From contig CAXXFF010000002.1 in the NCBI GenBank assembly GCA_963676835.2, forward strand, positions 1,875,465 through 1,939,464: a stretch of 64,000 nt of DNA, read 5' to 3'. A program made the position numbers and the translations under genes. The notes beneath the pieces are model-generated. The model made no database searches, had not been told where the DNA came from, and saw only the letters and a list, made by a program, of their open reading frames with translations. The DNA comes from Marispirochaeta sp. (lineage in GTDB: Bacteria; Spirochaetota; Spirochaetia; JC444; Marispirochaetaceae). This document shows, piece after piece, positions 23,149 through 41,668 of this stretch; positions within the stretch are counted from its first letter, which is position 1; every line of letters starts with the position of its first letter.

Positions 23149-23339
23149 TTTTTAGTATATGAATACTATGAAATTAAGAATTGGATATCGGTTAACTTAG
23201 TCTTTTAGGTATTAATAAGCATACATGAATGGACGTGATGCTGGTCGAGAATCAGGTGGAAGAAGCGGACCGCACGTTTGCCTTCGGCAAGCCGCTCTCG
23301 TCCGCCCCGCGTCCCTCCTTTCAGTCCGGTACGCGGGGG

Positions 23340-23373
23340 AAAAAAAACCCGTGAAGCTTTCGCCTCACGGGTC
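23340..23373 (-). terminator. Intrinsic terminator after dctM
   Basis: A-run followed by cccgtga...tcacggg stem. Confidence 0.65.
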
Positions 23374-23395
23374 TTGAGATCATCAGAAGTATTCC

Positions 23396-24691: not shown

Positions 24692-24705
24692 AGTATACCT
24701 CTATC

Positions 24706-25221
24706 CTAAAAATCGTGTCCGCCGGAAAGAAGATACTCTTTGTCATCTCCCTTCTCGGTAAGCAGGCCGGTGGTAAAGTACATCATGTGAATCAGCATGA
24801 ACAAAGACCCGATGGGTATGTTCAGCTTAACCCAGGTCATCGGGATGCGGATGATCGCACCAAGCTGACGGCGGGCAACATATGCGGCTTTAAAACCGTA
24901 GATAATGACAACCACGAGGAACAGGATAATAGTGATATATCCTATTACAAGGGAGAGTTTTCTGAGTGCAGGTTTCATGCGGGTAATAAAAAATTCGATA
25001 CCGATATGAGCACGCTCTTTCATTGCAACCGAAGCTCCAATGTATCCCATGCCGATCAGCATCCAGCGCATAAGTTCCTCATTCCACGAAAGGGACTGCA
25101 AAAAGACCCTGAAAAAGACGCCGAGAATCGCGAGGAAGGTTACCCCGAGAACGTACGCCAGCAGGATCCACTTGGCGGCTATATTGGTATAGTCGCTGGC
25201 TTTCTTCAAATACTGAATCAT
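24706..25221 (-). CDS. dctQ: TRAP transporter small permease
   Basis: Four TM segments, W.EEL.R, HIG.E. Confidence 0.9.
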   Translation of the reverse strand: MIQYLKKASDYTNIAAKWILLAYVLGVTFLAILGVFFRVFLQSLSWNEELMRWMLIGMGYIGASVAMKERAHIGIEFFITRMKPALRKLSLVIGYITIILFLVVVIIYGFKAAYVARRQLGAIIRIPMTWVKLNIPIGSLFMLIHMMYFTTGLLTEKGDDKEYLLSGGHDF

Positions 25222-25344
25222 TCTGTTTTCTCTCAATAAGTAAGTGTGGGAGACTCTTTATACAAGAGTAAGGGCAGTCCGGTCCTTTTGGGGACCGGAC
25301 TGCCATATATCCTTCTACAGGATGTATTTAACTAAGAGGTGAGA

Positions 25345-26499
25345 TTAGCGTCTCCAGCCTGCAGAGGCTTCAGCGCGCTTAACATCTTCTACGAAAGCAT
25401 CAACAAGTTCCGCTCCGAGTTCGCCCTTCAGGTAATCGATAACTGCGGGCTGTGCAACTTCCTGGAACTTTGCCTTTTCTCCAGCTGTGGGGAAGTAAAC
25501 TTCCATCTGAGCTGCAACTTCTTCGAACTTAACAATGTTGGAAACCATTTTCTCAGCAGTGTTGTTAGCTTCTACAGAAAGACGGGCACCAGCAAGGAGA
25601 ACCTGCTGTACACCGATGGGAAGGCTGTTGAATTTGTCAGCGTTCATTACCATAACGTTTTCAGACCATACGTGGCCGTCCATTGTCAGGTATTTCTGAA
25701 CTTCCTGGATTTTTCCGAGGAAGATGGAAGAAACGGGGTTCTCTTCACCGTCTACAACACCAGTCTGGAGAGCAGTGTAGAGCTCGTTCCATGCGATGGG
25801 TACTGCAGATGCGCCGAGAGACTCAACCATTTTTACGTATACGGGGCTCTGCATAACGCGGAACTTGATTCCCTTCATGTCTGCGGGAGTCTTGATGGGG
25901 CGTACGTTGTTGGTGAAGTTTCTCCAACCATTCTGACCCATTCCGAGGTATTTCAGGCCGGTTTCTTTTTCCATGTTGTCCATGAGGTCTGCCCATACTT
26001 TGCTTTCCCGGAAGAAAGTAGTAGTGATGTCGTCATTGGCGAACAGGTAAGGAATGGTGAAAATCTGGAAGGGAGCATAGAAAGTTCCCAGTGAACCGGT
26101 TCCGATGTTGATGTCCAGTGAACCGTTCTGTACCATTTCACAAGTTTCGCGGTAGCTACCGAGAGATCCGGCACCGAAAAGCTCAAGCTGAACCATTCCG
26201 CCAGTCTGAGATTCTACGAAGTCCTTGAACATAACTGCCATGGCATGCTCGGGATCGGGTACGTTAGCTGATTTGGGCCAAAGTACGGGGTCGTCATAAG
26301 ACATGCGCAGAGTAATGGGTTTTGAAGGCATTGTCATGTCAATGAATGCTGGGATTGCGCCTTCAGAGGAGGACATTGCGGGGGCTGCTGCTGCAGGTGC
26401 TGCTGCTGCGGGTGCTTCCTTAGCGCAGGAAAAAGCCAGCAGTGACAGTGTTACCAAGAGAGCAATGGTGAGCTTTCCTAACCATTTTCCTTTTGTCAT
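25345..26499 (-). CDS. dctP: TRAP substrate-binding lipoprotein with Ala/Pro linker
   Basis: Lipobox LAFSC, KFRV, ELYTALQTGVVDGEEN. Confidence 0.93.
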   Translation of the reverse strand: MTKGKWLGKLTIALLVTLSLLAFSCAKEAPAAAAPAAAAPAMSSSEGAIPAFIDMTMPSKPITLRMSYDDPVLWPKSANVPDPEHAMAVMFKDFVESQTGGMVQLELFGAGSLGSYRETCEMVQNGSLDINIGTGSLGTFYAPFQIFTIPYLFANDDITTTFFRESKVWADLMDNMEKETGLKYLGMGQNGWRNFTNNVRPIKTPADMKGIKFRVMQSPVYVKMVESLGASAVPIAWNELYTALQTGVVDGEENPVSSIFLGKIQEVQKYLTMDGHVWSENVMVMNADKFNSLPIGVQQVLLAGARLSVEANNTAEKMVSNIVKFEEVAAQMEVYFPTAGEKAKFQEVAQPAVIDYLKGELGAELVDAFVEDVKRAEASAGWRR

Positions 26500-26781: not shown

Positions 26782-27459
26782 ATGAAAGATAGCGAACAAC
26801 GCCAGACAAAGCATGAAATCTATACCACCCTCTTTGACCGGATAGTGCACAATAAATATCCCGAGGAAACCTGGCTCAGGGAGGATATTCTTGCTGCAGA
26901 GTTTAATGTCTCACGTTCTCCGGTACGGAGTGTGCTGCGGGATCTCGAACAGGATCATCTCATAGAGATTCTTCCCAAACGAGGAGCCAGGGTATTTCCT
27001 TTTACCGCTGATGACCTTGAGGATATTTATGAGCTGAGGAGAGATCTTGAACTCCTTGCCATGAAACGCTCCGCCCACTCTCTCAGTATCCAGAGGCTCC
27101 TCGAGCTGAAAGCCGATATTCTCGGGATGAAAGGAATAGTGCATCCTGTTGAGCATGCCAGAGCGGACAGCGCTCTCCATTCCTATATTATCGAATCCTC
27201 CGGCCGCCGGCGCCTTATTCTTATGCTTAAGCAGCTGTACCGGCTTACCCAGACTTTCCGGGAGCTCAGCCTTATAAATGAAACCTCACGTAATGCAACT
27301 ATCGACGAACATATAAATCTGATAGATGCATTGTGTATCAGGGATCTGGATAAAGCGGCAGAACTGTTAACAAGGCATATTGAAAACAGTAAAATTCGGG
27401 TGCTGACTCTGGTTATTCAGGGGAAAATGAAGGAGTCAGGCTCTAAGGTCACCGGCTAA
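26782..27459 (+). CDS. GntR-family (FCD) regulator, close paralogue of 17697-18347
   Basis: SRSPVR; shared FPFTADDLEDIYE segment. Confidence 0.9.
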   Translation: MKDSEQRQTKHEIYTTLFDRIVHNKYPEETWLREDILAAEFNVSRSPVRSVLRDLEQDHLIEILPKRGARVFPFTADDLEDIYELRRDLELLAMKRSAHSLSIQRLLELKADILGMKGIVHPVEHARADSALHSYIIESSGRRRLILMLKQLYRLTQTFRELSLINETSRNATIDEHINLIDALCIRDLDKAAELLTRHIENSKIRVLTLVIQGKMKESGSKVTG

Positions 27460-28385
27460 ATAACATTCACCTCTATTGATGCTTTCTGCAATAATGTAAC
27501 TGCCCTGTCTACTGTTTCCGAATCTGCTGCGGGAATTGCATCCCCCGGGTTTCTGCGGCCGAGGTGTCCATATTTTTCTGTTCCAAGGGTATGGTGGGGG
27601 AGCAGATCAACCTGACTGATGTTTAAGTCTGAGAACAGGCGAATCATAGCGTTCAGTTCGTCATCTGTGGTATTTATCTCGGGAATAAGGGGAATCCGTA
27701 TTCTGATTTTTGTTCGGTACTTCCCCATGGCGGTTTGAAGGTTGTTAAGAATAACTGAGTTGGTTTTTCCGGTGTATTTTTTATGGGTAGCAGGAACTGC
27801 TGTTTTAATGTCAAAAAGCAGTAAACTTGCAGTTCGGCAGACTTCCTGCATTACATCCCATGCTCCATCTCCGCAGGTATCTACGGCGGAATGAACTCTA
27901 TGGTCTTTCAATTTCTCAAGCAGGGAGAGGGTAAACTCCGGCTGAAACAGTGGTTCGCCGCCTGAAAGTGTAACCCCTCCTCCGGATTCCTCGAAAAATG
28001 GTTTGTCTTTAATAAGCTCATCAAATATTTCTTCCACGCTAACTGTTTTGCCTGCAACACTTAACGCATCTGTTGGACATTTTAATGGGGCTTCATGCAG
28101 GAAGAAATCGGAGGTTCTGGCTCTCTGAGGGATTAGTACTTTTCCTTCTTTGTCTTTTTTTACGCTTGCATTAACTCCTGTGCTGGAGTAGAGGGTGCAA
28201 TCCGGGAGGCATAGAGTTCTGTTATACATCAGTTCCGGGAAGCTGTTCTGACTTTCCGGATTCGCACACCAGATACACCGGAGAGGACAACCTTTCAGAA
28301 AAATTGTGGTGCGTATGCCGGGGCCGTTGTGAAGGCTGAAAGTCTGGAGGGCAAATATGCAGCCCTTTGGTGTGCTATGTGACAT
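27456..28385 (-). CDS. Radical SAM activating enzyme of the glycyl-radical-enzyme family
   Basis: GPGIRTTIFLKGCPLRCIWCANPE (CX3CX2C), GGVTLSGGEP, DIK. Confidence 0.93.
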   Translation of the reverse strand: MSHSTPKGCIFALQTFSLHNGPGIRTTIFLKGCPLRCIWCANPESQNSFPELMYNRTLCLPDCTLYSSTGVNASVKKDKEGKVLIPQRARTSDFFLHEAPLKCPTDALSVAGKTVSVEEIFDELIKDKPFFEESGGGVTLSGGEPLFQPEFTLSLLEKLKDHRVHSAVDTCGDGAWDVMQEVCRTASLLLFDIKTAVPATHKKYTGKTNSVILNNLQTAMGKYRTKIRIRIPLIPEINTTDDELNAMIRLFSDLNISQVDLLPHHTLGTEKYGHLGRRNPGDAIPAADSETVDRAVTLLQKASIEVNVI

Positions 28386-28394
28386 TCCTGCTGC

Positions 28395-30761
28395 CTAAAA
28401 CTGCGACATTTCTGCCCTGGATATTATTTCGTTCTGAACTTCCATGCTCAGCTGGTGCCAGTTTGTCACGTAGGCGGCTACACGAATAAGCAGGTCCGGG
28501 TATTTTTCCGGGCTTTTTTGGGCATCCTTCAAAATAGATGGGTCGATCACATTAAACTGAATATGAAATCCACCGAGGCGAAAATAGGTACGGATAAGGT
28601 CTTCAAGGTTTTTCTGTCCGTTTTTTGTGGAGATCAAACCTTTGTTCAGCTTCATGTTCAGCAGGGTTCCGTTTATTGCCTTATGGTGAGGCAGTTTTGC
28701 CTGGCTGGATAAGATGGATGTTACCTCCCCCTGCTTAAGGTACTGAGATGGAGAGCTTGCATCCGACAGGGGTGCAGCCGCTTGTCTTCCGTCCGGGGTT
28801 GCCCCTACCAGCTTTCCGAAGCCTACATGAGAGGTAAGGCTGTAGAGGCTCACAGTGTAGAGACCTCCCCAGATATCCCTATAATCTTCTGCAGTGTCAC
28901 AACAGAGATTGAACAGATTGACTGCAATGGTGTTGGAATTCTCCGAATCACTGCCGAAGCGGTCTGTTTTGTTTAAAAGTGTCTGCCGAAGAACCTCTTC
29001 ATTCATAAAATTGTTATTGATTGTCTTTACCAGATCCTGGAGAGAAATTATCTGCTTTTCATAGACAAACTCTTTCAGAGCTGACAGTGAATCACATACC
29101 GTGGCGAATCCAACCATCTGCACACCGGTATGATAGGAAACGGCTCCGCCGTTGTTTACATCTTTGCCGCTTTGCATGCAGCCCTGCACTAGAAGAGATT
29201 CATAGGGTTCCGGCCAAAGATCCCGGTGAGCCTTCTGCAGGCAGGTAACTCCTTCAACAACGGAAGCGAAAAGAGAGGATAACTGCGCTTTAAAAGCCTG
29301 CATAAAAAGGGAATAGTCCGTGAGTTCCGCCGGTTCTCCCGTTGTCGGTCCCAATTGTCTCCCGGTGAGGGGATTTCGCCCGTTATTCAGGGTGAGTTCC
29401 AGGCATTTCCCCAGATTAATCAGTGCAGCATCTGCCCAGGTCCAGGTTTTACCCTGGACGCCGTATTCTACACAGCCGATAAAAGCCCATTCGCTTAAGG
29501 CGGTGTCTTCTGGTAGACCTGCCTCAATATACATTTTGCTTCCTATATGATAGTTGAAGAATTTTGGCTTGGAGTTTTCTGCCACCAGCGCCACCGAGGC
29601 ACTGTAAAATGCAGGATCCATTTCCTCTGTCCAGAGAAGGCCGATATCCGGCTGATACAGATGGACTTTTTTCTCCGCTTCAAGAAAAAGAAAGGAGAGC
29701 TCATCGGTATCATCATTTCCGTTGGCAGTGAGGCCTCCCAGCTGAACCGGCTGGCCCACGGGAAAACCGCCATAGTTTCCAGCTGCAGCATTATTGTAAA
29801 GCTTGAGGATGTCGTTTGTTTTAAAGAAAAAGCTGACCAGCAGATTCACCGCATGGTCTCTGTTCAGTTTTCCCCTGTCCAGGTCCCTTTGATAGTAGGG
29901 CTGCAGCATAGACGCAATCCGGCCCAGGGTAACCCCGTAACCGTTGGAATCGATATAGCAGATTACATGAGTAAGCCATATACTCTGCAGGGCGGATTCA
30001 AAGCTGTCCGGGGGATTCCAGGGAACCTTCCGGCAGTTTTCTGCAATGGCTTTCAGCTCTTCTGCCCGAGTGGTATCTGCTGTTTCAGACAGTGATTCTG
30101 CAAGATGAGCGTATCTTTCTGCGAAACTGCGCACCGCTCGGGTAATAATAAGCACGCTTTCATAAAACTCTGCGCTTTCCGGAGCCAGGCTGCTGCTTTT
30201 CAGATAAGTCTCCGCTTCGGAATCGAGACCTGAAAAACCTTTCTTCAGAATCAGGGCATAGTCGGGCAGAAAGTGTCCGGTTCCGCAGGTAAGCATGTTT
30301 TCTGCAGAGAATAATCCCTCTTTCCGCATCTGGAGAATCTGTTCCGGGATATCAGACAGCCCGCGGTCTCTGAGGGTTCTACCTTCCCACCATGGCAAAA
30401 GCTGGCGAAGCTCCTGTTTAACCTCATCTGAGACGGCGAATTTATCCCCCGGCCGTGTTTCGTAGCTGTCCAGTTCGTTAAGAATGAAATCGACTCCCCC
30501 TTCGGGAAAGATTGGTGCAGAAACCGGTTCCGGCCCGAGGTTTCCTGCCATAAGCTCCCAGGGTTGAATATAGATTGTCATTTTTTCAAGGATATCGCGA
30601 AGCGCATAGGCTCTGAGGAGAAGCGGTGATACTTCTTCATTTTTCCGGTAGGTTTCGGTAATGATTCGCGCCCGTTCGGAGGTGAGGGACGGTTTCAGCA
30701 GCCTGGAGAGATAATAATTACGTGTTTCCTGCAGACGAATCTCATTTGCAAACCAGCTCAT
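28395..30761 (-). CDS. Glycyl-radical-enzyme (PFL-like) homologue with Ala at the radical position; candidate alanyl radical enzyme
   Basis: 788 aa from MSWF; GCVE Cys loop (Cys430); GATPDGR; HIQFNV; YPDLLIRVAAY in place of RVAGY. Confidence 0.88.
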   Translation of the reverse strand: MSWFANEIRLQETRNYYLSRLLKPSLTSERARIITETYRKNEEVSPLLLRAYALRDILEKMTIYIQPWELMAGNLGPEPVSAPIFPEGGVDFILNELDSYETRPGDKFAVSDEVKQELRQLLPWWEGRTLRDRGLSDIPEQILQMRKEGLFSAENMLTCGTGHFLPDYALILKKGFSGLDSEAETYLKSSSLAPESAEFYESVLIITRAVRSFAERYAHLAESLSETADTTRAEELKAIAENCRKVPWNPPDSFESALQSIWLTHVICYIDSNGYGVTLGRIASMLQPYYQRDLDRGKLNRDHAVNLLVSFFFKTNDILKLYNNAAAGNYGGFPVGQPVQLGGLTANGNDDTDELSFLFLEAEKKVHLYQPDIGLLWTEEMDPAFYSASVALVAENSKPKFFNYHIGSKMYIEAGLPEDTALSEWAFIGCVEYGVQGKTWTWADAALINLGKCLELTLNNGRNPLTGRQLGPTTGEPAELTDYSLFMQAFKAQLSSLFASVVEGVTCLQKAHRDLWPEPYESLLVQGCMQSGKDVNNGGAVSYHTGVQMVGFATVCDSLSALKEFVYEKQIISLQDLVKTINNNFMNEEVLRQTLLNKTDRFGSDSENSNTIAVNLFNLCCDTAEDYRDIWGGLYTVSLYSLTSHVGFGKLVGATPDGRQAAAPLSDASSPSQYLKQGEVTSILSSQAKLPHHKAINGTLLNMKLNKGLISTKNGQKNLEDLIRTYFRLGGFHIQFNVIDPSILKDAQKSPEKYPDLLIRVAAYVTNWHQLSMEVQNEIISRAEMSQF

Positions 30762-31561
30762 TATTCTGTTCCTTTTTTTTCGGTATGTTTCGTTTCCCGG
30801 GAGGCAAAGAATTCTGCCAGCCTTTTTTGAGTATCTCCCGAAGCCATGGCGGCGGAGGAGGCTGCAGCTTCGGCAAAACACATCTCTGTCTCTTTCAGGG
30901 CTGAGGCAGTGTTTATGCACTGCTTTATCATGGCTATGGATATGTGACTGTTGGCAGATACTGATGTATTGAACTGCTGAATGTGTTCGGAAAGGTCTTC
31001 TTCGGTCCCGTAAAAATTGATCAAGCCCGCAGCGAAGGCTGTTTCTGCAGAAATAGTTCTGCCCGTGAAAAGCAGTTCCTTTGCGAAAGGTGCCCCGGTT
31101 CTTAAAGGGACACGGAAAGTGCCTCCCCAGCCGGGAATAAGCCCAAGCCCTGCTTCGGGCATGGCAAACCTGGCGGAAGTTTCGGCGTAGATAAAGTCGC
31201 AGGCAAGGGCAAGTTCCAGCCCTCCGCCGGCTGCGATTCCCCGGACCATAGCCACTACGGGAATTTCAAGGGACTGCAGTCTATTAAATACTGCATGCCC
31301 TCTTTTTACCCAGGGGCGAATACTCTCATGATCTATCTCCTGGAGGGCTTTCAGATTTGCTCCTACCAGAAAATACTTTGGTTCACTGCTTTCAATGTAC
31401 AGAACCCTGATATCCGGAACTGCTGCAGCAGCCTTTTCTATGGCATTTTCCAGCATCTCCAGAGATTCATAATCAAGGGTCGGGGGCTTGCCTGGAGGAT
31501 CAACGGATAAAAGAATCCGTCCGGTCTGGCCTGAAATTTCAAGGCTGATCACTGTTTTCAT
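30761..31561 (-). CDS. Enoyl-CoA hydratase/isomerase (crotonase family)
   Basis: GANL, G.A.GGGLELALACD, PE..LGLIPGWGG; TAATG coupling to the GRE homologue. Confidence 0.92.
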   Translation of the reverse strand: MKTVISLEISGQTGRILLSVDPPGKPPTLDYESLEMLENAIEKAAAAVPDIRVLYIESSEPKYFLVGANLKALQEIDHESIRPWVKRGHAVFNRLQSLEIPVVAMVRGIAAGGGLELALACDFIYAETSARFAMPEAGLGLIPGWGGTFRVPLRTGAPFAKELLFTGRTISAETAFAAGLINFYGTEEDLSEHIQQFNTSVSANSHISIAMIKQCINTASALKETEMCFAEAAASSAAMASGDTQKRLAEFFASRETKHTEKKGTE

Positions 31562-31571
31562 TATTGCTACC

Positions 31572-33113
31572 TCAGCTGAAAAAACGGGTATCCATGGTTT
31601 TCAGATTTGATGAGATAAGCGGGCGGAAATCCATGTTGGCGAGAATATCTCTCTCAAGATCTATGCCGGGAGCAATTTCTGTCAGCATCAGTTCTCTATT
31701 ATGCAGACTGAAGACCGCCCGCTCCGTGACATACAGAACCGGCTGTTTACGCTTGTCTGCATAGCCGGCACTGAAAGTACGCTGGGCCACTCCGGAAACA
31801 AACTTCCTGATTTCACCTTCATGCTCTATGGTAATCTTTCCGTTACCGCTTGTGCATTTAAGCCCCTTTGCGGTAAAGGTGCCGCAGAACACTACTTTTC
31901 CGGCATTCTGGGTAATATTGATAAAACCGCCGCATCCTGCCAGCATACTGCCGACCTTGCTTGAGTTCACATTTCCGGCGCTGTCCACCTGGGCCATGCC
32001 CAGGAAGGCAAGATCCAGCCCGCCACCGTCATAAAAACTAAACTGTGAATCCATGGGAATGATTGCTTCGGGATTATAGGCCATTCCGAAAACCACGCCT
32101 CCCGCCGGTCGACCGCCGATGGACCCCTGTTCGACTGTCAGGGTCAGCTGGTCTAAATAGCCATCTTCTGCTGCAACCGCGGCGACTCCGTCGGGAACGC
32201 CATAGCCAAGATTAACCACTGCACCGGAAAAAAGTTCCTCCGCTGCTCTACGGGCAATAATTTTTTTCGGTCCCGCCGGGAGGGGCGGAATGGTTCCCAG
32301 AGGAGTTTTGACTCCACCGTTAAAGGCGGGTTCATAGCTGTGGAGACAGGTCATTGTCTGTTCCGGGTCTACTACAATGTTATCTACGTATATGCCGGGG
32401 ACAATTACCTCCCGGGGATTGAGAGTTCCCGGCTCTGCCAGGTATTTCACCTGGGCTATAACGGTTCCGCCGCTGTTTTTTACCGCCTGGGCAATGGCAC
32501 GGGCTTCAAGCATCGGACCATCTTCCTCGCAGGTAATGTTTCCTTTGAGGTCTGCTGTTGTGCCTCGAATAAAGGCTGCATCTATATGAAAGCGGGGAAA
32601 AAAGAGCCATTCCTCCCCCTTGATCTGAATTACCTCTACCAGATCCTCTGTTGTTATCGTATTGGTTTTTCCCCCCTCCAGACGGGGGTCGACATAGGTA
32701 TTAAGTCCGATTTTGGTTATAACCCCCGGGGTTTTTCCTGCCACGGCATGATACATATGGGATAAAACGCCCTGGGGAAAGTTGTATGCTTCCACCTGAT
32801 TGGACAGGATCAGCCTGCCCATGGCAGGGGACATGCCGAAGTGTCCGGAAATATCCCGTTTGACCAGGCCGGGGTGGGCGAGGAAATCAATTCCTGTCCC
32901 TTCCCTGTTGCCGATACCGGTAGAGTGGATAATGGTAATCCCTGAAGGAGTTGAATTATCCCGGTAATGCTCTCCCAGAGTCCGGAGCAGGAGTGAGGGT
33001 TCACACACTCCGCCACCGGACCCGTGAATGGCAAGGGTCATTCCGTTTTTAATTTTTGAAGCAGCCTCCATTGGCGTAAGCACTTTTGTCTTCATTCTTT
33101 TATTCTCCTCCAT
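31572..33113 (-). CDS. Family I acyl-CoA:acetate/propionate CoA-transferase (YdiF/Pct-like, fused subunits)
   Basis: AYNFPQG, DPRLEGG, NLGYGVP, VEQG catalytic Glu, GGFINI, YVTERAVF. Confidence 0.92.
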   Translation of the reverse strand: MEENKRMKTKVLTPMEAASKIKNGMTLAIHGSGGGVCEPSLLLRTLGEHYRDNSTPSGITIIHSTGIGNREGTGIDFLAHPGLVKRDISGHFGMSPAMGRLILSNQVEAYNFPQGVLSHMYHAVAGKTPGVITKIGLNTYVDPRLEGGKTNTITTEDLVEVIQIKGEEWLFFPRFHIDAAFIRGTTADLKGNITCEEDGPMLEARAIAQAVKNSGGTVIAQVKYLAEPGTLNPREVIVPGIYVDNIVVDPEQTMTCLHSYEPAFNGGVKTPLGTIPPLPAGPKKIIARRAAEELFSGAVVNLGYGVPDGVAAVAAEDGYLDQLTLTVEQGSIGGRPAGGVVFGMAYNPEAIIPMDSQFSFYDGGGLDLAFLGMAQVDSAGNVNSSKVGSMLAGCGGFINITQNAGKVVFCGTFTAKGLKCTSGNGKITIEHEGEIRKFVSGVAQRTFSAGYADKRKQPVLYVTERAVFSLHNRELMLTEIAPGIDLERDILANMDFRPLISSNLKTMDTRFFS

Positions 33114-33140
33114 ATCTGCATTACGCCGGGTGAAGAAACC

Positions 33141-34445
33141 TTAGACGAACAATTCCGGCATGAATAATTTGGGAATGCCAAGGGTAATGGAGGGAAAAAC
33201 AATAATAAGAACAAGAACCGCCAACATAGCCAGCAGGAATATACCAATCTCCTTAAGAGACTTCATGGCATTGATGCCTGCGATCTCACTTGATATAAGC
33301 AGGCAGAGTCCGTAGGGCGGAGTAACCAGACCAAAGGCCAGAGAGATAACGCCTACAATAGCGAAGTGTAGAGGATGGATTCCGACATGGGCGGCAATGG
33401 GTGCGAGCAGTGGTCCAAGAATGACAATGGCTGGAACCGAATCGAGAAAGGTTCCGACCAGAAGGAAGATCCCGACGAAAATCATCAGCATCAAGGTTGG
33501 AGATGTTGTTATACCTCCAAGAAGGCCAACCAGAAAGTTTGGAATCTTATAGTAGGCAAGGACCCATCCGTATATCGATGCGGTACCAACGGCAAACAGT
33601 ACAATCGCGGCAAGCTGCGCTGTATCCAGCATGAGCTGGATAAATTTATTGAACGAGACCGTGCGGTAGATAAACATTCCCAGTATAAGAGAGTAGATTA
33701 CGGCAACCAGTGAAGCTTCTGTGGGGGTAACAAAGCCGAAAACTATACCGCCGACAATAATTATCGGAGTAAAGAGAGCGAGAATTGCTCCCTTGAAGCT
33801 GGCTACGAACTCTTTCAGGCTGAAACCGGATTCCCTCGGATAGCCTCGCTTGAGGGCGAAATAGAGCACCAGAGCCATCTGGAAGAGAGCGATCAATACT
33901 CCGGGAACAAAGCCGGCAAGAAACAGTCCGGCAACGGAAGTGCTCATTACACCTCCCCAGACCACCATGGTTATGCTGGGGGGAATAATGTTTCCCATAA
34001 CTGCGGAACAGGCGGTAACAGCAACGGAAAACTGCTTGTCATACCCTTCCTTTTCCATTGCGGGTATAAGAACCGAACCGATACCCGCGGCATCAGCATT
34101 GGATGAGCCGGAAATTCCTGCGAAGAGCATGCTTACTGCCACGTTTACATGTCCAAGACCCCCGGGAAGCGGTCCGACAATGGAACGGGAAAAGCGTATG
34201 AGACGGTCGGTTATCTTGGCTTCATTCATTACAACTGCAGCAAGCAGGAAGAAGGGAATCGACAGCAATATAAAGGAACCGTACTGCACCATCATGCGCT
34301 GAAGCAGCATAAGCGGGGTAACCCTCGGGGTTAATATAAGAATCGGGATGACGGCGAAGGCCAGGGTAAAACTGACCGGAACGCGGAGTATAATAAGCAC
34401 AATAAGTAGAGTGAACATTATGGCAGCAACAGTGGCAGCAGTCAT
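33141..34445 (-). CDS. dctM: TRAP transporter large permease
   Basis: SGSSNAD, IIPPS, TPTEA, TPPYG. Confidence 0.95.
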   Translation of the reverse strand: MTAATVAAIMFTLLIVLIILRVPVSFTLAFAVIPILILTPRVTPLMLLQRMMVQYGSFILLSIPFFLLAAVVMNEAKITDRLIRFSRSIVGPLPGGLGHVNVAVSMLFAGISGSSNADAAGIGSVLIPAMEKEGYDKQFSVAVTACSAVMGNIIPPSITMVVWGGVMSTSVAGLFLAGFVPGVLIALFQMALVLYFALKRGYPRESGFSLKEFVASFKGAILALFTPIIIVGGIVFGFVTPTEASLVAVIYSLILGMFIYRTVSFNKFIQLMLDTAQLAAIVLFAVGTASIYGWVLAYYKIPNFLVGLLGGITTSPTLMLMIFVGIFLLVGTFLDSVPAIVILGPLLAPIAAHVGIHPLHFAIVGVISLAFGLVTPPYGLCLLISSEIAGINAMKSLKEIGIFLLAMLAVLVLIIVFPSITLGIPKLFMPELFV

Positions 34446-34996
34446 TTGTTGTTTTCTCCTTCATCCTTGGAATTTTCATTGTGATGAATGGTGTACGAAT
34501 CAGACATGTGATGTTCCGATAGTCTCCGGGCAAAGATATCTCTGTATAGTTGTTGCAGAAGGAAGAGCAGCCATGAGAATCCTGCAATCGGAACAGAGGC
34601 ATAGAGAAACCCAAGATTTATGCCCGTGAGTTCTGATGTCTGGATAAGCCCCCACTCTTTAAAGAAACGGTAGCCGTATCTTACGAATACATAGGTAACG
34701 GTGAAGGTCACAATGTAATAGATGATCTTCAGGAGCACGTCGAACCAGACTGGAAGATTTTCACCGAAAATATCGATGAAAAAATGACGTGAATCACGAA
34801 CTCCAATGATCGAGCCGATAAAGACCATCCATATCAATGAAAAATTCGTTACTTCCAGGGTCCAGAAAAAACGGGGAATAAAGGGAATATATCTGCCGGC
34901 AACGGTCAAGCCGACTGCGGCGAGCAGTACGAACATCAAAAAGATCAATAAGCCGGTAAGGAACCGTGAATAGAGATCGATAAGCTTAGAGACCAC
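34442..34996 (-). CDS. dctQ: TRAP transporter small permease
   Basis: Four TM segments, WTLEV, HF.ID; position between dctP and dctM. Confidence 0.88.
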   Translation of the reverse strand: MVSKLIDLYSRFLTGLLIFLMFVLLAAVGLTVAGRYIPFIPRFFWTLEVTNFSLIWMVFIGSIIGVRDSRHFFIDIFGENLPVWFDVLLKIIYYIVTFTVTYVFVRYGYRFFKEWGLIQTSELTGINLGFLYASVPIAGFSWLLFLLQQLYRDIFARRLSEHHMSDSYTIHHNENSKDEGENNK

Positions 34997-35067
34997 AGCA
35001 TTGCTCCTTATATGGAAAAAGCAGGCGGAATTTACTCCGGCCTGCTTTAAGATTAGTTGGTTTCAGA

Positions 35068-36084
35068 TCAGTCCATGGACTGGATTTTCTCAAATATATC
35101 GAGAGCACCAACCTCTTTCGCATACTCCCGGACAACAGGAAGCGCGCGCTCCTGGATTATCTTATTGTCAGCATCGCTCAACTCAATGACTTTCAGCCCA
35201 TGATTCTTCTCCAGGTTGGCGATTATCTCCTGGGCTTCGGCAACTTCGGTTTTACGGTGCCAGCGGCCTGCATCAAGCCCTGCTTTAAGAATGGCGTCCT
35301 GCATATCCTGGGGAAAACTCTCCAGACGGGGCTGTGAGAAAGCGAGAATCCTGGTTGTAATCTGATGGCGGGTCATAACATAGTAGGGTGCAACTTCGTA
35401 GAACTTCATACCTTCCAGACCGGCGGGTTCATTCTCGAGGCCGTCTACAACGCCGGTTTTAATTGCGTTATATACCTCCATGTAATCAAGAGGAGTGGGG
35501 TTGACGCCGACAGCTTCAAATACCTTTGCATGCAGAGGCGAGCCCTGAACCCGCAGATCGATCTTTCCAAGGTCATCTACAGATTTGATAGGCTGATTAA
35601 GAATAAGGCTGCGGGCTCCGCCACCACCGTATCCGATGAAGTTGACACCTTTTTCGATCATTGTGTTTCTGATCGGATCAAGGGCGCCGGCTTCAAGGGC
35701 GTTTTCCCAGTTTGACAGACTCTTGAAAAGAAATGGTGCATCGATAACCGGGGCGGTTTTGTCCCAGGTTGCAGCCCATGCGGGGGAAACAACGGCAAAG
35801 TCTACCGATACTCCCTGCATCATAAACTCAAGCATGTCTTTCTCGGTTCCGATTGAACCGGAATGGTGCAGCTCGAATTCGACATCGACGGAACCGTCGT
35901 AATACTCATTGAAGAGTTCGACAAACTTTTCCATGGCACGATAGTAAACGTGACCTTCAGGCAGCATAACGCCTCCAACGAGGGTTATCTTTTCCGGTGC
36001 AGCGCCTGAATCCTGTGCGCCGCCGGCAAACAGTCCCAGTGACAGTACCGACATAACCAGAACCAATACAATAAATTTTTTCAT
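35068..36084 (-). CDS. dctP: TRAP substrate-binding protein
   Basis: Signal peptide MKKF..FAGG, LRVQ, EVYNAIKTGVVDGLEN, FYEV. Confidence 0.93.
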   Translation of the reverse strand: MKKFIVLVLVMSVLSLGLFAGGAQDSGAAPEKITLVGGVMLPEGHVYYRAMEKFVELFNEYYDGSVDVEFELHHSGSIGTEKDMLEFMMQGVSVDFAVVSPAWAATWDKTAPVIDAPFLFKSLSNWENALEAGALDPIRNTMIEKGVNFIGYGGGGARSLILNQPIKSVDDLGKIDLRVQGSPLHAKVFEAVGVNPTPLDYMEVYNAIKTGVVDGLENEPAGLEGMKFYEVAPYYVMTRHQITTRILAFSQPRLESFPQDMQDAILKAGLDAGRWHRKTEVAEAQEIIANLEKNHGLKVIELSDADNKIIQERALPVVREYAKEVGALDIFEKIQSMD

Positions 36085-36128
36085 AGATCCTCCCTTGCGA
36101 ATTGACTTCACGGCAGTTACCGTATTTA

Positions 36129-36145
36129 ATTGGAACGTTACAATA
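36129..36145. promoter_or_regulatory. LacI-type operator ATTGGAACGTTACAATA
   Basis: Quasi-palindrome centred on AACGTT; exact reverse complement at 38131-38147. Confidence 0.75.
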
Positions 36146-36326
36146 GAAACGATATCAGCCATGTTTTCAGCTGTCAAGAAAATAGTTGATATCAGCCGGA
36201 TTTTGGGGTATAACAGGAAACCTGTGTCGATGTACTGCTGGTTTTAGTGAAATTAATTTAAAAACCTGTTATTTTCACCCCTAAGCCGGTTTTATCGTTC
36301 CAACTCTGACAGGCACGGCGGGAAAT

Positions 36327-37343
36327 ATGAAAAGAGGAAAGCGGGTTACTATCAAAGATATTGCAGAGCATGCGGGGGTATCAAAATCAACGGTATCGCT
36401 GGTTCTGCAGAACAGTCCACTGATTCCGGAGGCAACCTCTGAGAAGGTCCGGAAATCCATTGACGCCCTTGGCTATGTCTATAACAGGGCGGCTGCCAAC
36501 CTCAGAACCAAACGATCCCATATAGTGGGAGTTATTATCTCTGATATCGGCAACCCTTTTTTCAGCGAGCTGGTGACCACCATAGAAAACAGCCTTGAGC
36601 CCCATGGGATTGTGGTAATGCTTACCAATATTGCCGAAAGTCCGGAACGGCAGCGCAAGGCAATTTCCACGCTTATGGAGCATAACGTGGACGGACTTTT
36701 CCTGAGTCCCGCGAGAAACTCAACCGTCGATGATCTTGGGCCCCTGAAAAACAGCTCCATTCCGGCTGTGTTTGTAAACCGCTATGTTGCTGATTACGCC
36801 TGTAACTATGTGGGCGGTGATAATATCCTTGGTACGCGGATGGCTGTGGAGTATCTGCTTGATCAGGGCCACCGGGAGATAGCCTTTATTGGAGGGGATG
36901 AGGGGTCATCCTCCCGGAAAGAGCGGGTACAGGGCTATCTGGATGCTTTTGCAAAATATGGGATTGATCCCCCGGAGGGCTTGAATATACATACCACCGG
37001 TAACCGTAAGGGGGGGTACGCCGGGGTCCGTAGTCTGCTTGAGTCCGGAGTCCGGCCTACTGCCGCTTTCTGCTATAACGATGTTATAGCTCTGGGTGTT
37101 ATGCTGGGGCTGGAATCCAAGGGGATTCATCCGGGGGGGGATTTTGCAGTTTTCGGCTTTGATGATATTTCCGAGGCGGAACTCTGGACGCCGTCTCTTT
37201 CTACGGTGGCGATATCTCCCGAGACTCTGGGAAAGCGTGCGGCAGCACTGATGATTGAGAAAATAGAAAACAACAGCACAAATGAAAGAATCCTTGTTTC
37301 TCCCCGCCTTATGATCCGCGAGTCTTCCGTGGGCAGAAAATAA
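36327..37343 (+). CDS. LacI-family transcriptional regulator
   Basis: VTIKDIAEHAGVSKSTVS HTH, GFDD..P.LST. Confidence 0.95.
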   Translation: MKRGKRVTIKDIAEHAGVSKSTVSLVLQNSPLIPEATSEKVRKSIDALGYVYNRAAANLRTKRSHIVGVIISDIGNPFFSELVTTIENSLEPHGIVVMLTNIAESPERQRKAISTLMEHNVDGLFLSPARNSTVDDLGPLKNSSIPAVFVNRYVADYACNYVGGDNILGTRMAVEYLLDQGHREIAFIGGDEGSSSRKERVQGYLDAFAKYGIDPPEGLNIHTTGNRKGGYAGVRSLLESGVRPTAAFCYNDVIALGVMLGLESKGIHPGGDFAVFGFDDISEAELWTPSLSTVAISPETLGKRAAALMIEKIENNSTNERILVSPRLMIRESSVGRK

Positions 37344-37380
37344 AACGGCCGCGATTGCGGCCGTCTGCTGTTTCCCGTTT

Positions 37381-38112
37381 TTAATACATAAACAGACCGC
37401 CGTTCACATCAATGGTGGCACCGGTGGTAAAATCGTTTTCAATAAGATATTTGACCGCCTGGGCAATATGAATGGCCTGGCCGTTTCTTTTAAGGGGTGT
37501 ATTTTCCCTGAAGGTTTTCATCTTTTCCGGGGTGGAAACCTTTTCATGGAAAGGTGTTTCTATAACCCCCGGGGCAACAGCATTGACCCGTATTTTCGGA
37601 GCCAGTTCAGCGGCAGCACCACGGGTAAAAGTATCGAGGGCTCCCTTGCAGGCACCATAGATTGTCGCCGACGGCGCGCCGTGCCGCATGGCAATACTTG
37701 TCATGTTGATAATAACCGGATCATCTCCTTTTTCCAGCAAGGGAACACAGAGGGAGGTTATTTTCATTGTTGAAAAAGTATTCAGAGAAAAGGTCTCTAT
37801 CATAAAGTCCCAGTCGAGTTCGTTAATCGGCTGACGGTGAATAAGCCCTCCGGCATTGTTTACCAGAACATCCACCACGGGGAATAATTTTGCGCATTCA
37901 GCTACAAAGCGTTCACATTCCTCCGGTTTGGACAGGTCAGCCTGAATCAGGTGGGCTTTGCCGCCTTTAGCCTCCACATCTGCGGCCACTTTTTCAGCCG
38001 GCGCTTTCGATGAGTAGTAGTGAACAATAATTTCATTTTCAGGAGCAAGCAGCCGTGCGGTGTCTGCACCAATACCCGTACTTGCTCCTGTAATAATAAT
38101 TTTTTTTCCCAT
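37381..38112 (-). CDS. SDR oxidoreductase, resembles deoxy-hexoseulose-uronate (DEH) reductases
   Basis: TGASTGIG, NNAGGL, YGACKG, PG.I.TPFH. Confidence 0.8.
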   Translation of the reverse strand: MGKKIIITGASTGIGADTARLLAPENEIIVHYYSSKAPAEKVAADVEAKGGKAHLIQADLSKPEECERFVAECAKLFPVVDVLVNNAGGLIHRQPINELDWDFMIETFSLNTFSTMKITSLCVPLLEKGDDPVIINMTSIAMRHGAPSATIYGACKGALDTFTRGAAAELAPKIRVNAVAPGVIETPFHEKVSTPEKMKTFRENTPLKRNGQAIHIAQAVKYLIENDFTTGATIDVNGGLFMY

Positions 38113-38130
38113 ATAAGCTCCTTGAGAATG

Positions 38131-38147
38131 TATTGTAACGTTCCAAT
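38131..38147. promoter_or_regulatory. Second copy of the LacI-type operator, upstream of the SDR
   Basis: TATTGTAACGTTCCAAT is the reverse complement of 36129-36145. Confidence 0.75.
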
Positions 38148-38387: not shown

Positions 38388-39737
38388 TTAGGCCAGCTCT
38401 TCGATGTATTTCTTTGCCAGGAGGGCTGCTCCGCGAAGGGAGGACTGGTCGCGGTAGACATAGTTGCAGTCCCGCATCCAGAGTTTCTTGGCCTGTATCG
38501 TCAGATCGTTGGCGGCGCCGCCGGTGATGAACATATCGTCCTTCAGGGGAATTTCCAGAGAGATCTCTTTCAGGTGTTCCCGCTGATACTCCGCAAGTCC
38601 CCGTACCAGAGCTGCCAGGAGTTCATCTCTTCTGGTTTCCTGGTTCATGCCGGTAAACTCGGCTTTCAATGGATCCAGGGAGTAGCGTGAACCCATGAGG
38701 TAGGGAACATAGCGTACATTGCTGGTTTTGTGCATCCACTTGTTCAGGGCTTCGGGCATAAAGTCGGACCAGAACTGGTCGGGTGTCATTTCCGAGCAGA
38801 AAACCTGCTGGAACCATTCAAAAGCCTTTCCTCCGGCATTCATTACATAAAGGGTAAGCCAGCGGTCGGGCAGAACGTGGGCCCTGATGTTGTATTCAGT
38901 TGAAGGGTAACACTTGGGAAGACAGACCAGTGATATTTCGCAGGTTCCGTTTACATTAATGGACTGGCCGGGTTCGTTTACTCCTGCATCATATGCAGCC
39001 AGGGCCGCATCGTTTCCGCCGATGATGACGTATGGCTGTTTTTTAAAGCCAAGTTCCTGTGCCAGCTCTTTCTTTACAACACCGGCGCTGTCGTAGGAGT
39101 GGATTACCTTCGGTAGACGGTCTATGGAGAGATCAAAAGCTGAGGCAATCTCCTCATTCCAGGTAAGATCATTTTTGGTTGTATTATAAAGGGCGCTCAG
39201 AGATGCGGAAGATGGATCAATGGCAAAGTTTCCGGTAAGCCATTTGGCTACGAAGGTATTGGAGTGTCCGAAGCATGCTGTTTTCTCATAGGCCTCCGGT
39301 TCATTCTCCTTGATCCAGAGGATACTGGCCAGAGAACATCCACCTGCAACGGGCATGTTTGAAGTATCTGCCAGAATCTTTTCAAGTCCGACTTTCTTGA
39401 TAATATCAGCTGCCTGTTTGCGAGAACGCTGATCCAGCATCAGAATTGCCGGATAAGTGGCATTGCCGTCGGCATCCATGGCACTGAGACCGGGAGTTGT
39501 GCCGGACAGGGCCAGAGCATCAATATCGGCTATCAGGTCTGCCATGGCTTTGCATCCGTTGCGGAAGGCAATCTGCCATTTTTCCTGCTCGATATCACCG
39601 AATGTTCCGTCGTTGTAGACGTTTACATCATAGGGTTCGGAGTACTCTTTAATCTGCTCCAGATCTCCCGAGGCATTCTCTTTAAAAACCCCCATTTTCA
39701 TGGACGTGGTTCCGATGTCTACTCCAAGAATGTTCAT
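38388..39737 (-). CDS. FGGY-family carbohydrate kinase
   Basis: LGVDIGTTS.K, DQR, GGND, TGG. Confidence 0.9.
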   Translation of the reverse strand: MNILGVDIGTTSMKMGVFKENASGDLEQIKEYSEPYDVNVYNDGTFGDIEQEKWQIAFRNGCKAMADLIADIDALALSGTTPGLSAMDADGNATYPAILMLDQRSRKQAADIIKKVGLEKILADTSNMPVAGGCSLASILWIKENEPEAYEKTACFGHSNTFVAKWLTGNFAIDPSSASLSALYNTTKNDLTWNEEIASAFDLSIDRLPKVIHSYDSAGVVKKELAQELGFKKQPYVIIGGNDAALAAYDAGVNEPGQSINVNGTCEISLVCLPKCYPSTEYNIRAHVLPDRWLTLYVMNAGGKAFEWFQQVFCSEMTPDQFWSDFMPEALNKWMHKTSNVRYVPYLMGSRYSLDPLKAEFTGMNQETRRDELLAALVRGLAEYQREHLKEISLEIPLKDDMFITGGAANDLTIQAKKLWMRDCNYVYRDQSSLRGAALLAKKYIEELA

Positions 39738-39833
39738 CTGCCGCTCCTTTTTGCTTGTTGTTGTAAGTTCAGTTATAAAAGTAATCCCTCCGGCTTACGC
39801 GGAGGGATTGAGCGCCGGCTGAGCCGGCGTGTA

Positions 39834-40796
39834 TCAGGCAATAAAATTCTTTACTGAATCTTTTATCTGATCCGACTGCAGTCCATAGAGACCCAGAAGC
39901 GCATCGTAGGGTCCGTTGGATGCATACAGATCGTTCACGCCGATCCGGAGTACCGGTACCGGGTGTTTTGCAGAACATACTTCTGCTACTGCACTGCCGA
40001 GTCCGCCGGAAGTGTAGTGCTCCTCAACAGTTACAATGCGACCGGTTTTCTCCGCTGCTTCAAGAACAAGCTCCTCATCCAGAGGCTTGATGGTGTGCAT
40101 GTCTATCAGGCATACACTTACACCTTCTGCTTCGAGGGCCATAGCTGCGGTAACCGCATTTGCCAGCATGGTGCCGGTTGCTATTATGGTTACATCAGAT
40201 CCGTCCATCAGGGTTATTCCCTTACCGGCTTTAAACTCAACATCTTCGGGGTAAATGCCGGGCATGGGAGGACTTCCGATACGCAGGTATACAGGTCCGT
40301 CGATTTCTGCTGCGGCCTGCACTGTTTTGTGAATGCTCACGGGATCGCCGGGGTTGAGGATTGTAACACCGGGAATGGTGCGGATAATTCCGTAGTCATC
40401 CAGTGAGTGGTGGGTCGGTCCCAGATGGGAGTAGGTAAGACCCGCACAGCGGCCTACAACCTTGGCATTCTGGTTCATATATCCCAGGTCATTTCGAAAC
40501 ATCTCGTAGGGACGGGCAGTTACGAAAGGTGCAATGGCTGCGTAAAAAGGAATAAGCCCGGTGGAGGCCATTCCTGCTGCATATCCTACTGCTCCCTGCT
40601 CCATAATTCCGAACTCAAAGTGACGCTCGGGGAAGGCCTGGGCAAAGGGGCCCATGCCTGATCCGGAGGAGCTGTCGGTGGATATGGCAACAACTTTGGG
40701 ATTTTTATCTCCTGCTGCTTTCAGGGCTTCTCCGAAGACCTTTCGGGGATCCTTGGCTTCGGTAAAGGTTCTGTTCCAGTTGGTAATCTTCTTCAT
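39834..40796 (-). CDS. Split transketolase, C-terminal subunit
   Basis: GIMEQ, GPTHHS, KPLD, EEH. Confidence 0.92.
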   Translation of the reverse strand: MKKITNWNRTFTEAKDPRKVFGEALKAAGDKNPKVVAISTDSSSGSGMGPFAQAFPERHFEFGIMEQGAVGYAAGMASTGLIPFYAAIAPFVTARPYEMFRNDLGYMNQNAKVVGRCAGLTYSHLGPTHHSLDDYGIIRTIPGVTILNPGDPVSIHKTVQAAAEIDGPVYLRIGSPPMPGIYPEDVEFKAGKGITLMDGSDVTIIATGTMLANAVTAAMALEAEGVSVCLIDMHTIKPLDEELVLEAAEKTGRIVTVEEHYTSGGLGSAVAEVCSAKHPVPVLRIGVNDLYASNGPYDALLGLYGLQSDQIKDSVKNFIA

Positions 40797-41665
40797 TATG
40801 CACCTTTCCCCGCGCTTGCAAGAGCTTCTTTCATTTTCTTAAGGTCCGCATCTGCTGCAGCCAGTTCATCGGCATTGGCCTTCCAGTAGTGGTAGGCTGC
40901 CTTGCCTTCTGCAAAAGCGAGTCCCTTGGATTTTACCGTGTCGGCAATAATTACCGAGGGTTTTCCTTTTTCGAAGGGAACTGCGTCGAGGGCGGCAGTG
41001 ACTGCTTCAATGTCGTTTCCGTCTATGGTTTTAACACTCCAGCCGAAGGCCGCCCAGCGGTCTTCCAGGGGTTCGTAACTCATTACTTCTGTGGTTTTTC
41101 CGCCGATCTGCAGGCCGTTACGGTCTACAAAGGCCACCAGGTTGTCCAGCTTATGGAATGACGCGGCAGCAGCAGCTTCCCAGTTGGAACCTTCCGCCTG
41201 TTCGCCGTCGCCCATAAGAACATAGACGTTATTATCTTTTTTCTGGGCCTTAAGGCCCATGGCCATTCCGCCGGCGATGGAGAGACCGTGGCCGAGGGCT
41301 CCGGTATTCGCCTCAACACCGGGCTGCTTCTGCATGCTCGGGTGGCCGGGGAGGGGTGATTTCAGATCACCGTAGGTATCGAGGTAATCATCGGGCAGGA
41401 AGCCTTTCTCTGACAGTGCTGCATAGAGAATAAGGCATTTGTGTCCTGCGGAGAGAATAAATCTGTCTCTGTCTTCCCAGTCAGGTTTTTTCGGGTCAAC
41501 CTTCATGGTTCGAAAATAGAGGGCAGTCATAATTTCGGTGGCCGAGAGGGCCCCGCCGAGGTGACCGGATCCGGACGCTTTTATCATGCGCAGAACCCGC
41601 TCACGGAGGGCAAGGGCCTTCCCTTCCAGTTCAAGTTTTTCTGTGGCAGTCAAGCTCATCTTCAC
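40796..41665 (-). CDS. Split transketolase, N-terminal subunit
   Basis: DRFILSAGH, GHP, TGALGHG, GDGE..EGSNWE. Confidence 0.92.
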   Translation of the reverse strand: MKMSLTATEKLELEGKALALRERVLRMIKASGSGHLGGALSATEIMTALYFRTMKVDPKKPDWEDRDRFILSAGHKCLILYAALSEKGFLPDDYLDTYGDLKSPLPGHPSMQKQPGVEANTGALGHGLSIAGGMAMGLKAQKKDNNVYVLMGDGEQAEGSNWEAAAAASFHKLDNLVAFVDRNGLQIGGKTTEVMSYEPLEDRWAAFGWSVKTIDGNDIEAVTAALDAVPFEKGKPSVIIADTVKSKGLAFAEGKAAYHYWKANADELAAADADLKKMKEALASAGKGA

Positions 41666-41668
41666 ATC

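Follow-up and report, generated by a model that had tools for sequence, protein, structure and literature searches.

A 64,000-nucleotide stretch of the genome of Marispirochaeta sp., an anaerobic spirochaete (contig CAXXFF010000002.1, positions 1,875,465 to 1,939,464; hereafter the window) encodes an alanyl-radical enzyme (ARE), a relative of the glycyl-radical enzymes (GREs) with alanine at the radical position, in one operon with a tripartite ATP-independent periplasmic (TRAP) transporter, a coenzyme A (CoA)-transferase, a crotonase and an activase, and this operon shares an operator with a nearby short-chain reductase (SDR) gene. Based on active-site residues and gene neighbourhoods, we tentatively propose, as a reading that is quite possible though short of probable, that the ARE acts on a six-carbon sugar acid in its free form, breaking a C-O bond to give a deoxy-keto acid, which the SDR would reduce towards 2-keto-3-deoxygluconate (KDG), in parallel to a CoA branch. 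AREs were published in 2024 (Fu et al., PMC11528403), and that report gives 17 AREs, a stable alanyl radical detected by electron paramagnetic resonance after activation for one enzyme only, DgARE, and diverse gene neighbourhoods, with varied contexts and few isolates named by the discoverers as the bottleneck. According to a June 2026 review, none of the aminoacyl radical enzymes has been found to have a function (PMC13450708). The present locus offers a footprinted regulon in which DctP and LacI could both serve as easy sensors of the ligand, a reductase that accompanies the ARE as a partner, and an orthologue in a named species, and it makes the question of aminoacyl radical enzyme function testable as a short screen of sugar acids.

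An alanyl-radical enzyme at the end of a transport and CoA operon

The seven genes dctP, dctQ, dctM, CoA-transferase, crotonase, ARE and activase are all intact open reading frames (ORFs) on the minus strand of the window, separated in that order by 71, -4, 27, 10, -1 and 9 bp. The co-orientation, gaps of 27 bp or less after dctQ and TAATG overlap reported in a first-pass annotation of this DNA agree with these coordinates; the overlap forms the crotonase/ARE junction (-1 bp), and the ARE is counted from its ATG. The lacI gene is divergent from the dctP operon and the SDR gene is convergent on lacI. Pfam and NCBIfam bear out the family assignments. In window coordinates, the features are:

27456..28385, minus strand: radical S-adenosylmethionine activase (ARE-AE), 309 aa, CX3CX2C at C33/37/40; TIGR02494, 298 bits against a cut-off of 174
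28395..30761, minus strand: ARE, 788 aa, Ala763 in RVAAY, Cys430/Glu432, His163, Asp444, Tyr640, His645, Lys400; Pfam, motif, alignment, tree and structure model
30761..31561, minus strand: crotonase-family enoyl-CoA hydratase, glutamates E116 and E136; Pfam and alignment to 5Z7R
31572..33113, minus strand: family I CoA-transferase, YdiF-like, Glu328 in TVEQG; PF01144, 2AHU at E 1e-133
33141..34445, minus strand: TRAP large permease DctM; PF06808
34442..34996, minus strand: TRAP small permease DctQ; PF04290
35068..36084, minus strand: TRAP solute-binding protein DctP, 338 aa, conserved Arg178; nearest solved relative 4NX1/4OVP (38%)
36130..36143, no strand: LacI-type operator 1, just downstream of the operon's predicted -10 box; 14-mer search
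36149..36177, minus strand: predicted sigma-70 promoter TTGACA-17-TATCGT with extended -10 TG; consensus scan
36290..36303, no strand: weaker copy of the operator ahead of lacI, with 2 mismatches; L003, L004, L046 and L048 have a counterpart in the corresponding position
36327..37343, plus strand: LacI-family repressor; Pfam and NCBIfam
37343..37366, no strand: predicted bidirectional terminator hairpin between lacI and the SDR gene
37381..38112, minus strand: SDR, S139/Y152/K156; related to SDRs of uronate-catabolic clusters
38133..38146, no strand: LacI-type operator 2, which repeats operator 1 exactly in inverted orientation and lies 20 bp upstream of the SDR start; 14-mer search

The radical motif of the ARE is RVAAY, with the Ala763 codon GCC at window positions 28475-28473, and its Cys430 lies in GCVE. 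Both GRE domains are recognised (PF02901, E 8.6e-175; PF01228, E 3.7e-24), and a structure model (mean predicted local distance difference test score, pLDDT, of 85) folds into the GRE barrel with a TM-score of 0.93 to glycerol dehydratase 1R8W at 35% identity. The gene is under purifying selection, with a ratio of nonsynonymous to synonymous substitution rates (dN/dS) of 0.06 against the locus L003. Homologues came from a profile search against 1.84 billion representatives, extended by an alignment search, and all those of 45-85% identity with an intact C-terminus carry alanine. The search recovered the Desulfoscipio geothermicus protein P0266, which is 42% identical to the window ARE and whose Ala762 matches A762 of DgARE. 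Both fall into one clade of 73 sequences, all with alanine (FastTree support 0.94 in a tree of 323 sequences; 1.0 for a 72-member core and 0.96 for the node joining the window ARE and DgARE), and a quick IQ-TREE tree of a 34-sequence subset agrees, with a Shimodaira-Hasegawa-like approximate likelihood ratio (SH-aLRT) support of 97 for the pair. Cys430 is invariant in 73/73 members, and the activase adjoins the ARE, 9 bp downstream, as expected for the clade. Since it shares this all-alanine clade with DgARE, the window enzyme is, as judged by sequence, a member of the published ARE class and not a new radical type. Its nearest orthologue in a named species is that of Marispirochaeta aestuarii (64% identity, P0004 cluster).

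With DgARE the window ARE further shares the CVE Cys-loop, an adjacent activase and the residues N155, M156, T158, H163, K320, Y322, F333, K400, W440, W442 and H645, and it differs (window/DgARE) at C159/G, Y275/L, D444/N, Y640/F and T643/S, because of which the substrates of the two enzymes may differ. The expectation that the enzyme belongs to no characterised GRE pathway was upheld: it scores below every curated cut-off of the specific NCBIfam GRE families (best scores against cut-offs: HypD 486/1100, PflD family 482/1109, HpfG 461/1000, CutC 443/1050) and is at most 35% identical to solved GREs. Membership in HypD, PflD, HpfG, HpsG, CutC, IAD, HPAD or PFL was rejected on these hidden Markov model cut-offs and the lack of a glycine radical residue, and a sequencing error or pseudogene was rejected as the source of the alanine on account of the 73 alanine homologues in one clade and the low dN/dS.

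No gene of the locus diverges faster than that of the activase (63% identity and dN/dS 0.11 against L003). Compared with six relatives the activase has lost most auxiliary Fe-S cysteines, keeping 3 in its ferredoxin-like insert, and activases of more distant AREs (L005, L006, L009, L014) retain the cysteines for two full clusters there.

Several observations concern the wider family. Two enzymes with an alanine motif, P0126 and P0288, lie outside the main ARE clade and group with the glycine enzyme P0180 (SH-aLRT 99) in a lineage sister to threonine enzymes (96), and a third, P0335 from Ca. Aerophobetes, groups with YbiW (100). These placements suggest at least three origins of the Gly-to-Ala change, compared with the single ARE clade of Fu et al. 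(2024), and possibly an alanine lineage beside the threonine clade. At L009 (335-8504) and L011 (1720-7530), an ARE stands in tandem with one or two canonical glycine GREs behind the only activase visible there, and it may be asked whether alanine and glycine targets share it. The ARE is split into two ORFs at L018 (9980-12329) and L020 (2090-4424), by frameshift or assembly error. A second GRE of the window's own genome (G000:C2:963265-965178, L001) has the motif KVAGY, with lysine for arginine, and its own activase; it scores above the TIGR01774 cut-off and falls in no specific family.

Regulon, partner reductase and conservation of the gene set

The 14-mer TTGGAACGTTACAA has exactly two exact matches in the 4.43 Mb genome, at 36130 (+) and 38133 (-), and no copies with one mismatch, where 0.037 matches would be expected genome-wide from base composition. 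This bears out the earlier view that the SDR gene is tied to the operon and its divergent lacI by a shared operator. A degenerate form of the pattern matched the lacI/dctP and SDR positions in 4/4 congeneric genomes searched, the sites being kept at the same places with substitutions, and a reversed-pattern control gave 0 matches across all 5 genomes. Matches to the sigma-70 consensus in the operator region show no excess overall (16 versus 13.1 in shuffles). In the window's own genome (G000), the degenerate operator also occurs upstream of a paralogous dctP (G000:C4:215881-216891, 54% identity). An operator-like site precedes the gene for a YqhD-like Fe-dependent alcohol dehydrogenase (Fe-ADH) in G000 and G404 and was not found in G402, G405 or G406; as G000 and G404 are close kin, the Fe-ADH was rejected as a core regulon member. 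No convincing site was found at the distant ARE loci L005-L014, L017, L018 and L020, with one 3-mismatch match in L006.

Across lineages, the SDR is the gene most tightly linked to the ARE. SDR orthologues (62-96% identity) are present in 5/5 ARE-bearing genomes tested, and in the class of G411, where ARE and SDR are each found in 1 of 102 genomes, they occur in the same genome as co-oriented neighbours. The protein has the TGxxxGxG motif and an S139/Y152/K156 triad, features generic to SDRs. In the family of G410 the SDR gene comes after an IclR gene wherever its context is visible, and at 2/5 loci of that family, those of G410 and G513, the orthologue has kduI nearby, in G410 together with adjoining kduD, TRAP, kdgK and eda genes.

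The full arrangement, lacI/dctPQM-CoA-transferase-crotonase-ARE-activase plus SDR, is found in L003, L004, G402 and G405, and L008 has the same order from dctP onward. The ARE is present in 5/7 genomes of the family and in place in 5/6 of the genus, and crotonase directly precedes the ARE only in this genus and one near-identical locus. Neither an ARE nor a CoA-transferase or DctP match was found in G401 (81% complete) or G403 (12% contaminated), and 400 other sampled Spirochaetota gave no ARE at E<=1e-200 and no DctP at E<=1e-60; CoA-transferase homologues occur in 24 of these 400, at 53% identity at most. The CoA-transferase carries PF01144 twice, with E328 of TVEQG aligned to the catalytic glutamate of YdiF, and the crotonase has glutamates at both catalytic positions (E116 and E136, aligned to 5Z7R).

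The ARE is not preceded by a crotonase at any of 14 loci from outside the genus, several of which are on short contigs (L019, at 38% identity, split and with no motif visible, was left out of the neighbourhood counts). G409 and G410, from two other spirochaete lineages, encode an ARE and, at a separate site, lacI/dctPQM-CoA-transferase (66%)-crotonase-AroE-like, with a MaoC-like gene after lacI. They show a different palindrome, whose match test is partly circular because the pattern itself comes from these two genomes; the palindromic operator-like word of the CoA module in G409 is found again at a paralogous TRAP near the ARE. This co-occurrence and shared word support a functional tie between module and ARE. 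In the family of G410, among fragmented metagenome-assembled genomes (MAGs), a CoA-transferase orthologue (64-68%) is found in 9/12 genomes and the ARE in 1/12, and the module reads lacI/dctPa-enolase-family enzyme-dctPQM-CoA-transferase-crotonase-(AroE-like). The ARE-activase pair of G410 itself lies among unrelated genes, and G411, an incomplete MAG, has ARE and SDR with no CoA-transferase or DctP match. The gene association described at first pass was seen in full order only within one genus and a near-identical locus, and the complete pathway is not conserved as a unit. We found no description of the gene set or regulon in print, in a search that left subscription journals mostly uncovered; the supplement of Fu et al. 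(2024) may list the M. aestuarii orthologue.

The loci L042, L043, L158, L159 and L161 (G409 and the G410 family) hold an ARE-independent arrangement, lacI/dctPa-cycloisomerase family-dctPQM-CoA-transferase-crotonase-AroE-like; in two genomes lacI is followed by a MaoC-like gene. The arrangement appears to be a separate, so far undescribed pathway that uses CoA to process a sugar acid or cyclitol.

Candidate reaction and substrate

The active site resembles those of GREs that eliminate or isomerise at C-O bonds, having both their CXE motif (C430-V-E432) and the equivalent of His164 (H163). ARE H163, C430, E432, D444 and Y640 align with H164, C433, E435, D447 and Y640 of the B12-independent glycerol dehydratase, and H163, F333, E432, D444, Y640 and H645 are the same as in E. 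coli PflD at all six positions. The catalytic roles of glycerol dehydratase C433, E435 and H164 and the chemistry of PflD are reviewed in sections 5.6 and 5.7 of PMC13450708. The positions matching glycerol dehydratase and PflD are invariant in 23/23 subclade members (54-85% identity), and K400 is invariant in 73/73 members of the alanine clade and present in 7% of the glycine enzymes of an earlier alignment. In place of glycerol dehydratase His281/Ser282 and Tyr339 the ARE has Y275/G276 and F333. Since it retains the C-O eliminase residues, its sequence speaks for cleavage of a C-O bond, by dehydration or ring opening, rather than of a C-C bond, and the radical C-C cleavage allowed by the first-pass annotation is not favoured; the PFL or decarboxylase type is also disfavoured by the CVE loop with its single cysteine and by far lower scores against PFL, HPAD and IAD.

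For the substrate, the DctP, the SDR, and the cycloisomerase-family and KDG kinase/aldolase genes near relatives point to uronates or anhydro sugar acids, which fits the polyhydroxy carboxylate suggested earlier. The nearest solved relative of DctP is the Sulfitobacter protein of 4NX1/4OVP, whose ligands we take to be D-taluronate and D-mannuronate. Its gene sits in a cupin-SDR-aldehyde dehydrogenase-dctPQM-uxuA-sugar kinase cluster, so that a related DctP (38% identity) and SDR (37%) occur together there; the top solved match of the window SDR, 4YQY, is close in sequence to the SDR of that cluster, and in three other plasmid DctP contexts an oxidoreductase gene lies beside DctP without uxuA. 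The window SDR also matches A1-R' (4W7I; E 7e-31, among 12 mixed matches), a reductase of the catabolism of 4-deoxy-5-keto-uronates such as DEH, whose route to KDG is treated in the part of PMC8778563 cited here. Known uronate routes (A1-R/A1-R', KdgF, KduI/KduD, KdgK, Eda) differ in that DEH comes from polysaccharide lyases, not from a radical enzyme or CoA ester. The window's genome has homologues of kdgK (68%), eda (61%), kduI and kduD and a KdgF-like cupin. Sister-subclade AREs (45-49% identity) have KDPG aldolase, KDG-kinase-like, RraA and aminotransferase genes as neighbours, the aldolase and kinase-like genes standing by the ARE in L014, L016 and L018 and the aldolase also in L017. In G410, G514, G515 and G523 the module contains an enolase-family gene, which in G409 is located close to the ARE; its closest solved relatives are DauB (5OLC) and AtGCI (4GGB), which are ring-opening cycloisomerases (PMC5698469). 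In L005 this gene is frameshifted, and its homologues in the window (1594-2781 and 56856-58025) lie outside the operon and have no operator.

Under the preferred reading, LacI would repress dctPQM-CoA-transferase-crotonase-ARE-activase, the SDR gene and a second, paralogous TRAP elsewhere in the genome, and the TRAP transporter would import a ring-shaped sugar acid (hexuronate or anhydro-aldonate). The activase would install the Ala763 radical, to be relayed to Cys430, with Glu432 acting as the base and His163/Asp444 helping the oxygen to leave, in the manner of glycerol dehydratase. As a lead candidate, a mannuronate-type uronate would lose hydrogen at C5 and the C4 hydroxyl to give a DEH-type 4-deoxy-5-keto-uronate, although as the specific reaction of the ARE this is rather unlikely. 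Reduction by the SDR would be followed by KdgK and Eda, with entry at KDG, while CoA-transferase and crotonase would form a more widespread parallel branch, carrying out beta-elimination on the CoA ester of a related acid and not feeding the ARE. That an aminoacyl radical enzyme could here be assigned a reaction for the first time, as a hexuronate dehydratase or ring-opener that works by a radical and gives 4-deoxy-5-keto-uronate directly from a monomeric sugar acid, beside a likewise undescribed CoA-transferase/crotonase route with the same beta-elimination on a stereoisomer, both passing through one SDR to KDG, is a prospect we regard as unlikely. If true, it would mean new radical chemistry, possibly with CoA-dependent sugar-acid dehydration, in the anaerobic carbohydrate turnover of sediments and digesters.

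Several points weigh against this proposal. The SDR occurs in 5/12 genomes of the G410 family, where the ARE occurs in 1/12, and therefore does not need the ARE. The uronate assignment of DctP and SDR is contextual, because they are only 37-38% identical to the Sulfitobacter proteins, which does not suffice for assigning a function, and SDR matches at E<=1e-30 also include FabG and glucose 1-dehydrogenase. UxuA and ManD homologues in the same genome could handle mannuronate without a radical step. For the residue that would anchor the substrate carboxylate, alignment offers three candidates, K320, K400 and H645. With regard to the parallel CoA branch, the ARE is translationally coupled to the crotonase in the window, and the CoA-transferase orthologue, found in 4/5 ARE genomes tested and above 53% identity in 0/400 Spirochaetota, fits a sequential link as well. 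Finally, the AroE-like dehydrogenase directly after crotonase in G409, G410, G522 and G523 hints at a cyclitol acid.

The nearest variant of our proposal makes the ARE a PflD/YbiW-like isomerase that opens a non-reducing anhydro sugar acid at its ring C-O bond, giving a deoxy-keto acid with no water lost. The agreement with PflD at all six positions and the cycloisomerase-family enzyme in the module of relatives argue for it, and with non-reducing substrates it would be clear why the usual routes through uronate isomerase do not suffice; however, the ARE is only 33% and 32% identical to PflD and YbiW, which open the ring of 1,5-anhydro-alditol-6-phosphates, its clade stands apart from both of these glycine-radical enzymes, their genes have a phosphotransferase system and aldolase context where the window has TRAP, and the SDR context points to aldehyde-bearing 5-keto-uronates. 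We consider the share specific to ring opening unlikely but substantial. A linear route, in which the acid is activated with CoA after import, then dehydrated by the crotonase and passed to the ARE as its CoA ester, is essentially what the first-pass annotation proposed, and of it the operon and operator stand while the linear order draws weak support. The TAATG coupling within a single operon, the order kept in L003, L004, L008, G402 and G405 and the presence of both module and ARE in G409 and G410, with the shared word at the ARE-side TRAP of G409, are consistent with this order, and the ARE occupies the slot of the AroE-like dehydrogenase of G409, G410, G522 and G523, for which it could be a one-step replacement. 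It is nevertheless quite unlikely given the unequal CoA-transferase and ARE counts in the G410 family, the 14 outside loci that have no crotonase before the ARE and the ARE and SDR of G411 without module genes; to our knowledge, formate lyases are the only GREs that use CoA.

A cyclitol carboxylate of the quinate, shikimate or dihydroshikimate type is an improbable substrate, for which the CoA branch would work on shikimoyl-type esters and the ARE would dehydrate a ring diol. The AroE-family dehydrogenase following crotonase in the four genomes named above, the MaoC-like protein flanking lacI in G409 and G410 and, in G409, a further AroE-like gene located downstream of the ARE all suggest it, as does the nearest solved CoA-transferase, E. 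coli YdiF, whose gene neighbours are presumably ydiB and aroD. Against these stand the uronate-type SDR, DctP and KDG-pathway neighbours, the failure to find in the window's genome an orthologue of the AroE-like (best match 30%) or MaoC protein, and the loss from the AroE-like protein, in alignment, of two positions that we take to be the shikimate carboxylate binders. The window locus also differs from YdiF's setting in having no acyl-CoA dehydrogenase or electron-transfer flavoprotein genes. Glycerol and propanediol dehydratases, the best sequence and fold matches, would make the ARE a dehydratase of terminal diols, with an aldonate or a short polyhydroxy acid as its substrate, the aldehyde then being reduced by the Fe-ADH with its operator-like site in G000 and G404. 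This is very unlikely, since that site is confined to those close kin, the His281/Ser282 and Tyr339 positions are replaced, and the locus, unlike those of these glycine-radical dehydratases, has no polyol or microcompartment genes. Still less does an ARE-activase pair inserted at the end of the CoA module and acting on an unrelated compound commend itself; the widely varying ARE neighbourhoods (also noted in the part of PMC11528403 drawn on here), the pair lying among unrelated genes in G410 and the rapid divergence of the activase would suit such a passenger, but the low dN/dS of the ARE, its retention in 5/6 genomes of the genus, the joint lack of ARE, CoA-transferase and DctP matches in G401 and G403 and the recurrence of ARE-SDR adjacency in another class make it highly improbable.

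Surroundings of the locus in the window

Between 1594 and 63836 the window holds four TRAP systems, three enolase-family dehydratases, many GntR/FCD regulators and PdxA-like and TctABC genes, and as a whole it is a sugar-acid island; a KdgF-like cupin and ManD are encoded a few kb before its start. At 21556-26499, a second TRAP system (dctP2QM2) is divergent from a GntR gene (26782-27459) and convergent on a gene for a group 22 nickel-pincer isomerase (NF052515, which it matches above cut-off with 510 bits), and this TRAP/isomerase arrangement is kept in L003, G402 and G405. Upstream of the SDR gene lies an operon (38388-43574) for a transaldolase-like protein (476 aa, long), RpiB, a split transketolase and an FGGY kinase, which is conserved in the genus and lacks the operator. 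An IS21-type IstB gene stands at the window start (274-1014), and a PIN-domain gene (50270-50722) lies in a low-GC stretch between the paralogous TRAP operons at 47077-50011 and 51072-54056.

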